Assembly: GCF_003334765.1 (NCBI RefSeq)
Contig: NZ_QOWT01000001.1
DNA: 64,000 bases
Reading direction: 5' to 3' (one strand)
Source of the DNA: Escherichia coli
GTDB taxonomy: Bacteria; Pseudomonadota; Gammaproteobacteria; Enterobacterales; Enterobacteriaceae
The position numbers were made by a program. Below, one piece after another: positions 1 through 24,000 of the stretch (positions are counted from its first letter, which is position 1; each line of letters starts with the position of its first letter).

Positions 1-3000
1 CCTTGCCACGGGGCGAGACAGCAGCGATTGCCAGAGTTCAGCCACCTGTTTTTCCAGCGCCGAATTCCCCCCGGCAACTGGCGTGGGTTTGGCTGGCTCA
101 GTCGGCGCATCAGACGGGGCATGCAGCGGCGTAAATAACGCTTCTCTTTGCCGGATCTGTAAAATGGGCAGACCGGTGCCAAAGCGCTGCTGTAAATAGC
201 GGCTCACGGCTTTTTTATCCGGGCGATTTACGCCAGGCGAACGCGCTACCAGCAGATGCTGGCGCAGCGGCGACGATTCCTGCGCGGGCCACGCCAGCTC
301 GTTTGCAAACCCGGCCTGAACGAGAACCTCCTGCCATGCGGAGCGGGTGAGCATCGGTTTCTCATCCCGGCGGCGGAAATCGCGGTATCCGCTTAATCCC
401 TCAATAAAGCCCACGCTCGCCAGCTGGAATACGCTGTTTCGCTCCGTCGCTTCAACGATCAGCAAACGTCCGCCGGCTTTCAGCAACAGTTTTAATCTGC
501 GCAACGTCTGGACGACATGGCTGGCGTCGTGGAGCACATTGACGGCAACGATCAGGTCGTAACCCGCCTCCGGGTGGGCGGTGAAATCCAGCGGCTGGTT
601 GATGTCGAACAAGGCATAAGACACCTGCGATTCATCATGGAAACGGGCTCTGGCGTCATTGAGGAACTGCGCGGAGACGTCCGTGAAGTGGTACGACTGC
701 CGCGTGTTCCGCGTGGCCTTCAGCACCGGCGCGGTAGTGGCTGCGGTTCCGGCGCCAACCTCCAGAATCCGTTCTGCGCTGCACAAGGCGGCAATCTGCG
801 CGGTATAGCGATTCAGACAGGCGCTGGCGGGGTTGTCGCGATACAGCGCGTCGGTAACGCGATGCTGCTCGTTGAACAGCAATTCCAGCGGAGAACACTG
901 CCCGGAGAAGAGGGCGTCGTGCCGGGCGATGCAGGTTTCCAGATACTGCGCCAGCGCCTGGCTCCATTGGCTTTGCGGGCACGCTTCCTGAGGCTCAGGA
1001 ATCTCGCTGAGCGGAATGCGGCAGCGCCAGCTTTCACCTTCGCGGATTAACCACTCTCTTTCCGTCAGACACTGTAGCCACTGGCGCAGCAGACGCTGGT
1101 GAGACGCTTGCGCGGACAGCGCCTGTACTACTGCGCTAAAGCGATGGGCGATCTCCGGCGTGGTAAACAGGCCGTGACGATTTAGCGTAGCCGCGATCCC
1201 CTGTAGCGCACGCGCCTCCAGCCAGCGCCAGGTCGCCTCCAGCTCATCAAGCTGCGCCTGCTCAGGCAACGGCAGCGCCAGTTGGGTAAGTTCGTGCTCA
1301 TCAGGCATCGCCGCTGATGGCGACGGATCGTCGGCCATCACGATATCCAGCGTCAACGCGCCCTGTTCGGTTATTTCCGCTCTGGCCTGCCGGATGCCGG
1401 GGTATTCGAGCGTCGCCTGCTCAATATCCCGCAGGTCGTAGTCCGCCTGCGCGTTCAGCGGCCAGCGTCGGCGGGGAATGTGCCCGGCGATGCCGCTGGC
1501 GAGAGTCTTCAGGCTTTCAGGGGCGGCGATGACGGCTTGCAGGATGGCGCAATAGTCATTAAACATCGCCTCGGCAGCGCCGGGTTCCAGCACGTTGTCC
1601 ATGCAGTACCAGCTAAACATCAACTCGCCGTCGCTCTCCATGACCTGATGATCCAGCCAGACCTGCGGCGTTTGCGTGAATACATAGCAGGGTTCGCCGA
1701 ACAGATGGCTCATCGCCTGATCGATAGTCATGCCTTCCAGCGTCATCCCCAGCATACTGGTAAACACTACCGGCATCAGCGGTTGACGTTGTGATCCGCG
1801 CAGGCGGCCCAGCTCACGGATCACCTCAACACCGTTCATTTCACTGTGCGCCATGTTTTGCCAGAGGCGCTGTTGGGTCTGTTGCATCTGCTCTTGCAAC
1901 GTCACCGGCGCTGAGAAGTTAAAATCAACCAGCGTGACGGAGGTAAAATCACCAATCAACTGGTTGATTTGCGGATGGATCGGCTGGCGATTGAAGAACG
2001 TCAGGTTCAGCGTAAATGTTGTGGTACGGCTCCAGCGCTCAAGGGTGGCGGCAAACAGCGTGAGCAGCGCGGCAGACGGTGTGACGCCTTGCTGCTGCCA
2101 GCGCTGTTTCACGGCCTGCCATTCTGTCTTGCCGATCGTCGATTTGAAGGTGGTGAAGTGTGGCGTTTCCGGGGGCGTCTCAACCACCGGCAGCTCTGGC
2201 GCTAAGGGCAGTTGCGGCAGTTTTTCCTGCCAGTAATCCCAGGCATCGTGCCATGCCGATGTCTGTCGGCGCGCCTGTTCAGCCATCACATAATCACGGA
2301 AGGTAATAGCGAGCGGCGCCAGCGTTTCACCGCGCCAGACCTGCGCCAGGTCGTCCATCATGACTTTAAAACTCTGCACATCAAACTGCAAAAGGTCGAG
2401 GTTCATATGCAGACGGTAATGGCAATCGTCGATTTCGCTGACCACCAGCTCAAAAAGAGGCCACTGGTCGGCAGGCAAAACGCGATAGCTCAGTTCATGC
2501 CGCCGTTTTTCCAGCGCGATGCGCTGTTCTTCCGGGGAAAGCGCGCGCAGATCGTCACGCGGGATGTGATACTCCGGCGTTGTCGCCAGGATTCGCTGCT
2601 GCCCGTCGGCATCAACCACCATACGCAACATATCGTGGCGTGCGATGAGCTGGTTCCATGCTTTCTCCAGTATGGCGAGATCGAACTCATCGTGGCGTTT
2701 ATCCCACTCAAACAGGACGTGACAGGCGACGCCGCCATAGCCAATGAGGTGGGTTCGCCCCAGCCAGTAGGCGTGCTGAATGGGCGTCAAAGGGAAGGGC
2801 GCATAACGCTCGTCGGCGTCGTGCCGCAACACTTCCGGCTGCGAAGCGGCAGGCGTCGCCTCTGGCTTAGAACAGATAAGCTGCGTGAGTCCATGAGGAG
2901 ACAGATCCTGCCACGCCCGTTCCGCATTGATGCGTACGCCCAGGTAGTGCTGAATATCGCTACTGAGTTCAAGGAAGAGCAGCGAGTCCATGCCGAGTTG

Positions 3001-21000: not shown

Positions 21001-24000
21001 GATTTCTGGCGTTTTACGCCAGTTCGCAGAAGAAGAGTGTTATGTCTATGAGCGTCAACCCTGTTGGTATTTAGGCAAAGGGTGCCAGGCACGGCTGCAC
21101 ATTAATGCCGACGGAACGCAGGCGACATTTATTGATGATGCTGGGGAGCAAAAATGGGCGGTGGATTCCATTGCCGACTGCGCGCGTCGTTTTATGGCGC
21201 ATCCTCAGGTGAAAGGACGTCGGGTATATGGACAGGTTGGGTTCAACTTTGCGGCGCATGCGCGGGGGATTGCCTTTAACGCCGGGGAGTGGCCGCTGCT
21301 GACGTTAACCGTTCCCCGTGAAGAACTTATTTTTGAAAAGGGAAATGTCACCGTTTATGCGGACTCCGCCGACGGGTGCCGACGTTTGTGCGAGTGGGTA
21401 AAAGAGGCCGGTACAACGACGCAGAACGCACCACTGGCGGTGGATACCGCCCTCAATGGTGAGGCATATAAACAACAGGTTGCGCGCGCCGTTGCGGAGA
21501 TCCGCCGTGGCGAGTATGTCAAAGTGATTGTCTCGCGCGCCATTCCCCTGCCATCGCGGATTGATATGCCCGCCACGCTGTTATACGGGCGGCAGGCAAA
21601 CACGCCTGTGCGCTCGTTTATGTTCCGTCAGGAAGGACGCGAAGCGCTGGGCTTTAGCCCGGAACTGGTGATGTCAGTGACGGGCAATAAAGTGGTCACT
21701 GAACCGCTTGCGGGCACCCGCGATCGCATGGGAAACCCGGAGCATAATAAGGCGAAAGAGGCAGAACTGCTGCACGACAGTAAAGAGGTGCTTGAGCATA
21801 TCCTTTCTGTCAAAGAAGCTATTGCTGAACTGGAGGCTGTTTGCCAGCCGGGCAGCGTGGTGGTTGAAGATTTAATGTCGGTTCGCCAGCGCGGCAGCGT
21901 TCAGCATCTGGGGTCTGGCGTGAGCGGTCAGCTTGCGGAAAACAAGGATGCCTGGGATGCGTTTACCGTGCTGTTTCCGTCGATTACCGCCTCAGGTATC
22001 CCTAAAAATGCTGCTCTGAACGCGATTATGCAAATTGAGAAGACGCCGCGAGAGCTTTATTCCGGCGCAATCCTGCTGCTGGACGATACGCGCTTTGATG
22101 CGGCGCTAGTTCTGCGTTCCGTATTTCAGGATAGCCAGCGCTGCTGGATACAGGCGGGGGCGGGAATCATCGCGCAATCTACGCCGGAACGCGAACTGAC
22201 AGAAACCCGGGAGAAATTAGCGAGCATTGCGCCCTATTTAATGGTGTAGGAGTAACTGTTTTCTAACCTCACAACCAGACTGTCCAAAGACAATTGAGTC
22301 GCTCTTTGATTCCTCTGTGACTCTATTGTCTTCTTTTGGGATAAAATAGGTGTTTTTCGTCATGAAGTTGATAAAAGTCTATATAGAACCACCTCCTGTG
22401 GAGGTGGTGGTAATTTGCCAGAGTGTGGGATTCGTTAGTATACTATGGGATAAACTTATTTTTACCAATTGTATAAGGCGGTGCATAAGATTCTCGGCAT
22501 GCTTCCAGATAATCCGACCACCACTGCATCATCGCTTTGCGGGCTTCCAGGTGCTCTGCCTTATGAATATAAGCCATGCGCACGGTATTGCGCTCCTGAT
22601 GACTCATCTGGCGTTCTACTGCGTCCTTTGCCCATAAACCCGATTCCATCAGCGCACTGCATGCCATTGCCCGGAAGCCGTGACCGCAGATATCCTTTTT
22701 CGTGTCGTAACCCATCACCCGCAGTGCCTTATTGACCGTGTTTTCACACATTGGCTTATACGGGTTATGGTCGCCGGGGAAGATCAGTTCATTATTACCG
22801 GTGATATCCTTAATCTGTTTCAGAATGGCGATGGACTGTTCTGAGAGGGGGACGATATGCGGCATTCGCATTTTTGCCCCGCGGCCGGAATAATGCACGC
22901 CAATAATGGGTTCTCGCGTCGCGGGTATCGTCCAGACTCGGTTTGTGAAATCAATCTCTGACCAGCGGGCGAAACGCAGTTCACTGGAGCGAATGAACAC
23001 ATGCAGCATCAGCAGAACGGCATGCCGGGTCAGTTCACGGCCCTGATGATATGCCCCAATACGTTCAAGCAGTTCAGGCAGCCGCTCCAGCGGCAGGGCA
23101 GGATAGTGCCGTCTGACAGGAGGTGTGGTCACGCCGCCAAGGTTTGCTGCAGGGTTCGTATCGATTAACTCCTGATGGACCGCATGGCGTATTATGTTAC
23201 TCAGGTGCTGCCGTGTGCGGGACGCAACCTCCAGCAGACCTTTTTCCTCGATCCCTTTCTGCAGGTCAATGAAATGACGGGGTTTAAGTTCTGATACAGG
23301 TAGGTTCCCGATGACCGGAAAGATGTGATTGTTCAGGCTGGCAAGCAGACGGTCGGCGGTGTTCTGCGACCATTTCCTGTTACTTTTATGCCACGCCAGC
23401 GCCACGTTTTTAAAAACTTTCTCCGGTGTTCGTGAGCCACGTACAGCAGCCCGCTGCTGTACCGGGTTGATATTCAGCGCCAGCATTTTACGGATACCTT
23501 CACGTTGCTGTCGCGCATCAGACAGGGAGATGGCTGGATAGGCACCCAGCGCAATGCGGGATTCTTTACCGCTAATACGGTATTTGAGATACCAGTGGCG
23601 GGAGCCACCCGGCTTGACCCGCAGATACAGACTGTGAGAATCGGAGACTTTAAAGGGTTTATCAGAAGGCTTGAGGGTGCGGATTTTTGCGTCGGTAAGG
23701 GATATATGGGGGTCACTCCATTATCGAACTAACCCGACCCCAGATTTGACCACCAATTTTTCCCGATGCGTAGGGTAAAATCAAAATGCACCGAGAAGAG
23801 TTTTCACACTAACCTGTTGAATCAACATCAGATAAAGATTCGCAAGGATGCAAGAAAACAGAAAATTGGCTCCTCTGACTGGACTCGAACCAGTGACATA
23901 CGGATTAACAGTCCGCCGTTCTACCGACTGAACTACAGAGGAATCGTGAGAACGGGGCGCATATTACTTAGCGGTACCTTGTCTGTCAACACTAAATTTC

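Follow-up and report, generated by a model that had tools for sequence, protein, structure and literature searches.

The window analysed here is a 64,000-nucleotide (64-kb) stretch of Escherichia coli DNA (assembly GCF_003334765.1, contig NZ_QOWT01000001.1). Taken as a whole, the evidence is best explained if positions 1–23866 are the int-proximal part of the common, asnT-fixed E. coli form of the yersiniabactin High-Pathogenicity Island (HPI), a reading that we regard as almost certain; no evidence was found that contradicts the HPI identification. In extra-intestinal pathogenic E. coli (ExPEC), the HPI ranks among the major determinants of virulence and fitness, and its presence means that the strain is likely to be of ExPEC type or an HPI-positive commensal. 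Earlier publications already cover the island itself, where it inserts, how its genes are ordered and that it is fixed in E. coli, and as a discovery the identification adds nothing. An initial reading made from the sequence alone (the sequence-only reading) had likewise called this a known siderophore island rather than a new system, and both the annotated gene names and the published description of the HPI bear this out.

We used genome comparison to place the window among sequenced strains. More than 10 E. coli chromosomes are 100% identical to positions 1–24000, and at least 80% of this segment is present in 2235 of 5426 complete genomes. Strain 1428 (NZ_CP023366.1) differs from the whole 64-kb window by a single base, at position 27471 inside msrQ. 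Because there is only this one mismatch, we took the annotation and the flanks of strain 1428 as a proxy for those of the source genome, and all statements about the DNA upstream of the window (ybtU, ybtT, ybtE, fyuA and the right border) were read in strain 1428, locus L001. There, the complete island measures ~31.4 kb (L001 5417–36865), of which 23.9 kb falls inside the window. On the identical sequence, annotation by the Prokaryotic Genome Annotation Pipeline (PGAP) gives every gene its yersiniabactin name and raises no pseudogene flags. The genes of the island within the window are as follows, with the evidence for each in brackets:

<1–8541, minus strand: irp1, encoding HMWP1, a mixed polyketide synthase/non-ribosomal peptide synthetase (PKS/NRPS) (PGAP; ketosynthase-acyltransferase (KS-AT) and methyltransferase profile matches)
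8629–14736, minus strand: irp2, encoding HMWP2, an NRPS of 2035 aa (PGAP; adenylation-domain match at residues 594–990)
14927–15886, minus strand: ybtA, AraC-type activator of 319 aa (PGAP and open reading frame (ORF) call)
16053 or 16143–17855, plus strand: ybtP, inner-membrane ATP-binding cassette (ABC) half-transporter (PGAP and ORF call)
17842–19644, plus strand: ybtQ, ABC half-transporter of 600 aa (PGAP and profile match)
19637–20917, plus strand: ybtX, major facilitator superfamily transporter of 426 aa (PGAP; RhtX/FptX-family match)
20945–22249, plus strand: ybtS (irp9), salicylate synthase of 434 aa (PGAP; TIGR03494; 2fn0)
22443–23705, minus strand: int, P4/CP4-type tyrosine recombinase of 420 codons (PGAP; Pfam; solved chain 3jtz)

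The gene order tRNA-Asn/int/ybtS-X-Q-P/ybtA/irp2/irp1, which the sequence-only reading had recognised as the HPI layout, agrees with both the PGAP names and the matches to solved structures. The similarity of the ORFs to Irp and Ybt proteins that it had proposed as a check was also found, with matches to the solved chains of Irp9, YbtPQ and HMWP2/Irp2. YbtS scores 682 bits on the salicylate-synthase equivalog TIGR03494 (cutoff 325), and the solved Yersinia Irp9 (2fn0) matches it across all 434 residues with 971 bits. YbtS is the sole protein with a family-specific NCBIfam match above cutoff; the other Ybt and Irp proteins matched generic ABC, NRPS, PKS or AraC models, all below cutoff. Since the NCBIfam matches are mostly generic, the naming of the genes rests on PGAP and on the PDB matches. 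Irp2 matches two solved fragments, one of HMWP2 (7ry6) and one of Irp2 (7jtj). The irp1 gene is cut by the window start, with its first 2846 codons inside and its final 951 nt beyond. There are two possible starts for ybtP: an ATG at 16053, giving 600 aa, and the PGAP start at 16143, giving 570 aa. The solved YbtPQ transporter chain 6p6i_A has 600 aa, and its residue 31 aligns to residue 1 of the PGAP version of YbtP.

The left end of the island was located by comparison with the empty asnT site of K-12 MG1655. Three features make up this junction:

23867–23942, minus strand: asnT, tRNA-Asn(GTT), chromosomal and outside the island (ARAGORN and Rfam; K-12 synteny mtfA-asnT)
23866–23882, minus strand: 17-bp attachment (att) core CCAGTCAGAGGAGCCAA, the left junction (pattern search; K-12 empty-site alignment)
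23706–23865, unstranded: int-att spacer, island-borne (alignments, which show it conserved in the HPIs of other E. coli and of Raoultella)

The att core comprises the final 16 nt of asnT and one further base. A search of the window for CCAGTCAGAGGAGCCAA gave a single match, where ~0.07 chance matches would be expected with 3 mismatches allowed. Identity to the K-12 empty site runs through the last base of the 17-mer (23866) and the sequences are unrelated afterwards, which sets the island boundary at 23866 and upholds the earlier claim that the island ends at the tRNA 3' end with the att core. The integrase reading frame lies 3' of asnT on the same strand, and the int promoter and arm sites are presumably located in the spacer between them. 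In Raoultella planticola ATCC 33531, a bare att core (TCCAGTCAGAGGAGCCAA; L006 2960–2980) precedes an HPI-type int, and no tRNA-Asn gene was found in that locus. That the core stands alone before int in Raoultella fits its role as the recombination core. The Klebsiella pneumoniae ATCC 13883 locus (L008) likewise yielded no tRNA; the arrangement suggests that the element in Raoultella and K. pneumoniae sits in tandem behind another island.

The G+C content is 0.55–0.63 in the ybt genes and 0.52–0.55 in int, falling to 0.43–0.47 in the mtfA flank; that of the adjacent backbone is 0.38–0.47, below the ybt genes. A compositional step had been predicted at about 23866. The change itself is real; it is not one sharp step, however, being divided between two, near 22.2 kb and near 23.7 kb.

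The right border is outside the window, past its start. In strain 1428, ybtU, ybtT, ybtE and fyuA follow irp1, intact and directly upstream of the window, where the sequence-only reading had placed them. They are followed by ~1 kb of AT-rich DNA, a 5'-truncated yeeJ, a glycosyltransferase family 9 gene, shiA and amn. The second att copy that had been expected in the same region was absent: no match to the 17-mer at ≤3 mismatches was present in the 13 kb upstream of the window in strain 1428. No conjugation or transfer module was present beyond fyuA in this strain. By BLAST against K-12, backbone homology restarts within yeeJ at about nt 219. The absent K-12 backbone amounts to 584 bp (K-12 locus L012 4630–5213), made up of the asnT-yeeJ spacer and ~218 nt of the yeeJ 5' end. 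At the border itself, ~7–8 kb before the window start (strain 1428 L001 5020–5769), the AT-rich end of the island runs in frame with yeeJ to form a chimeric 249-aa ORF, which PGAP names 'inverse autotransporter beta domain-containing protein'. No Pfam or PHROG match was found for the HPI-derived part, the first ~118 residues. The remainder of yeeJ in strain 1428 is broken further by internal deletions.

This is the border structure described by Schubert et al. in 2009: all HPI-positive strains of the ECOR collection but one had the island inserted at asnT with a unique deletion at the fyuA border, which takes out the direct repeat along with some of the adjacent genome (PMC2606025). The deletion fixes the island and prevents excision, and the HPI spreads by homologous recombination of its flanks (PMC2606025). 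The missing right border here is the published deletion of the common E. coli HPI. The window shares with that form the asnT insertion beside mtfA (yeeI), the gene order, the raised G+C, and the fyuA-border deletion with loss of the direct repeat and adjacent backbone (PMC2606025). There is no substantive difference between the two; the changes private to the window clone are one in the int leader (G at alignment column 226) and G25S in Int. The sequence-only reading had counted the lack of an att repeat at the far end as evidence against an HPI. The repeat is indeed lacking, yet the HPI identity stands, and that test was mis-specified: to have lost this repeat is characteristic of the common E. 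coli HPI, as published (PMC2606025), and its absence is not evidence against an HPI. In future scans, a missing second att repeat is unusable as a test against the HPI in E. coli.

The integrase gene is the other part of the mobility apparatus that is altered. The protein has the Pfam domains Arm-DNA-bind_3 (residues 3–87), Phage_int_M (98–191) and Phage_integrase (224–384). A solved chain whose deposition names it a CP4-like integrase, 3jtz, matches residues 2–81, with differences at positions 25 and 29 alone over residues 2–80. The gene begins with ATA (23703–23705, minus strand), with an in-frame stop five codons upstream, and homologues start at the codon where the int of the window has ATA. 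The earliest in-frame ATG, GTG or TTG is codon 74 (23486), and a product made from this codon would be without most of the arm-binding domain (residues 3–87). To read the start codon in other species, we used species-representative genomes and an exact 30-nt pattern around the start codon, which returned six loci, none from Yersinia. ATG was the start in all six (Raoultella, two Klebsiella, Pantoea, Affinibrenneria and Izhakiella). Exact matching over 30 nt probably missed copies bearing single-nucleotide polymorphisms; the alignment to 3jtz begins at residue 2, past the start codon.

Both start states occur in E. coli. An exact 41-mer with ATA, its length chosen to avoid linked sites, was found in 919 genomes and the exact ATG version in 634; ~1970 genomes were matched, of which ~420 had neither exact version, so that both counts are lower bounds. 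No other single int allele is as common in sequenced E. coli as the one with the ATA start. The two states are separated by more than the start codon: the E. coli ATG alleles carry three further linked changes relative to the 81-mer of the window, and the window 81-mer with only ATA changed to ATG had no exact match in the E. coli genomes. The exact window 81-mer is common to just 41 genomes.

AUA supports initiation in E. coli at roughly 1–2% of the AUG level (10.1101/063800). We also compared the coding sequences with those of the Raoultella HPI. Eight codons of int differ, start codon counted, of which seven are non-synonymous (M1I, G25S, L29R, E88V, L149Q, M172I and R271H) and one is synonymous. 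In ybtS, five codons differ, two of them non-synonymous and three synonymous. The seven-to-one ratio of codon changes in int, the start included, together with the missing att repeat suggests a decaying recombinase that has been drifting after becoming useless. We tentatively raise the possibility, which we consider less likely than not, that the HPI has been domesticated in E. coli in more than one step and that the ATA start marks the second, independent of the first, with the recombinase being lost by drift after the right-border deletion. A literature search turned up no report of the start-codon change. If the proposal is true, the ATA allele would be a handy marker for HPI lineages.

These observations can be assembled into a history of the island. 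Original entry would have been by Int-catalysed recombination of attP with the 3' end of the asn tRNA gene, leaving the core at 23866–23882. The island in this lineage would now be unable to leave by the Int route for two reasons, the border deletion and the altered integrase: the fyuA-side att, 584 bp of backbone and the yeeJ 5' end have been deleted, as seen in strain 1428, and the integrase has lost its ATG and carries six further amino acid changes. Such islands spread passively within E. coli, through homologous recombination of the flanks (PMC2606025).

The cargo of the island presents a different picture from its mobility genes. In yersiniabactin synthesis, YbtS converts chorismate to salicylate, which YbtE loads onto HMWP2. 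HMWP2 and HMWP1 then assemble the thiazoline/thiazolidine backbone from three cysteines and a malonyl unit, with the help of YbtU and YbtT. Ferric yersiniabactin is taken up via FyuA and the YbtPQ ABC transporter, and the yersiniabactin promoters are activated by YbtA and repressed by Fur. The following candidate control elements were found in the window:

14781–14799, unstranded: Fur-box-like site 5' of irp2, GAGAATAATAATTATTAAC (differs from the 19-mer consensus at 4 positions)
14811–14844, unstranded: perfect 12-bp inverted repeat ACCCGAAACGGG-N10-CCCGTTTCGGGT, adjoining the irp2-side Fur-like site (repeat search)
14863–14895, minus strand: 14-bp perfect hairpin directly 3' of the ybtA stop (repeat search)
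15920–15976, unstranded: divergent ybtA/ybtP control region, with a repeat copy at 15920–15947 and a Fur-box-like site at 15958–15976

A scan with the Fur-box consensus (19 bp, ≤4 mismatches) gave two sites only in the 64-kb window, both of them in the irp2 or ybtA/ybtP control regions. The repeat search found that a copy related to the inverted repeat at 14811–14844 adjoins the second Fur-like site, at 15920–15947. These repeats are candidate YbtA operators, an assignment modelled on the published repeats of the Yersinia promoters. The hairpin at 14863–14895 is a probable ybtA terminator. Control of the promoters by Fur and YbtA is suggested here at the level of motifs, namely the two Fur-like sites and the shared inverted repeat. 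No RNA families were found inside the island by Rfam, the only matches in the window being two tRNAs, DsrA and RseX. With all the genes intact and both the Fur-like sites and the putative repeat operators present, the siderophore cargo is most likely functional.

Among known forms of the HPI, that of Yersinia pestis and Y. pseudotuberculosis shares with the window the yersiniabactin genes, including the full-length match of YbtS to solved Irp9, and the N-terminal domain of Int, which follows 3jtz except at residues 25 and 29. In Yersinia, too, the HPI has this 17-bp att core at an asn tRNA. It retains both direct repeats and, in Y. pseudotuberculosis, can be excised by Int with the Hef excisionase, whereas here the right repeat is missing and int starts with ATA. 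Outside E. coli, the copies compared were those of R. planticola (99.5% identity across 2979 nt of ybtS-int-att) and K. pneumoniae ATCC 13883 (97.5% identity across 1674 nt). The HPI also exists as an integrative and conjugative element (ICE), as in E. coli ECOR31 and the Klebsiella ICEKp elements, with which the window shares the int-ybt core and the att core. The ICE-type HPI keeps both att copies and a conjugation module, and in ECOR31 it sits at asnV (PMC2606025). The int of these relatives starts with ATG, in contrast to the ATA of the window, and neither a second att nor a conjugation module lies beyond fyuA in strain 1428.

One alternative reading is a complete, still mobile element of the ECOR31 or ICEKp kind, which would have its second att repeat, an excisionase and a conjugation module past the window start. 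The int-side anatomy (tRNA-Asn, att core, int, ybtS onwards) is identical in the fixed and ICE forms, and recombination-competent relatives do exist, as indicated by the free-standing att core before int in Raoultella and the lack of a tRNA in the K. pneumoniae locus. The order found in strain 1428 is nevertheless fyuA, ~1 kb, truncated yeeJ, then shiA and amn, with neither a transfer module nor an att copy, and for this strain the mobile reading is refuted. An asnT insertion with the border deletion is, moreover, the published signature of the immobile type, the ICE type being at asnV in ECOR31 (PMC2606025). For the source genome we consider a mobile element extremely improbable. Another possibility is that decay has gone further than the mobility genes, leaving a remnant with non-working siderophore genes. 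The mobility part is indeed decaying, given the ATA start, the excess of amino acid changes in int and the deleted right border. The ybt and irp genes, by contrast, are all annotated as intact on identical sequence, ybtS differs from its Raoultella counterpart at merely five codons, three of them synonymous, and putative Fur-like and repeat operators are present; a non-working remnant is very unlikely. A third type of island that has large NRPS/PKS genes beside a P4-type integrase at an asn tRNA gene is the colibactin pks island. Here, the genes carry yersiniabactin names one by one, YbtS is near-identical to Irp9, and YbtP and Irp2 match solved yersiniabactin proteins, and we reject the pks island, or any other NRPS/PKS island at an asn tRNA, outright.

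The account that we favour, a fixed yersiniabactin HPI with cargo that probably works and a recombinase that seems to be in decay, has its own weak points. The far end of the island is outside the window, and its structure is deduced from a near-identical genome. Yersiniabactin production is likewise predicted from the intact genes. As regards the integrase, eight differing codons, split seven to one, are too few to reach significance, and PGAP keeps the ATA-start int at its full length of 420 aa. The gene may still be translated at a low level from AUA, or yield a shortened protein that begins at codon 74.

Outside the HPI, the backbone part of the window has several further features. The cellulose-regulating diguanylate cyclase gene dgcQ (40388–42082) is a pseudogene with an internal stop in the strain 1428 annotation. 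The two small RNAs found by Rfam are both full-length, with RseX at 34667–34756 (minus strand) and DsrA at 43093–43179 (plus strand). The rseX gene is adjoined by a porin gene (33239–34354) that is annotated as intact. Between fliE and yedF there is a patch of low G+C (0.37–0.45; 56051–59322), which carries emrE, ybcL, a helix-turn-helix regulator gene, an IS200/IS605 tnpA (58067–58591), a truncated helix-turn-helix gene and a truncated gene for an SOS-response-associated peptidase. This patch looks like the remnant of a small prophage or island.

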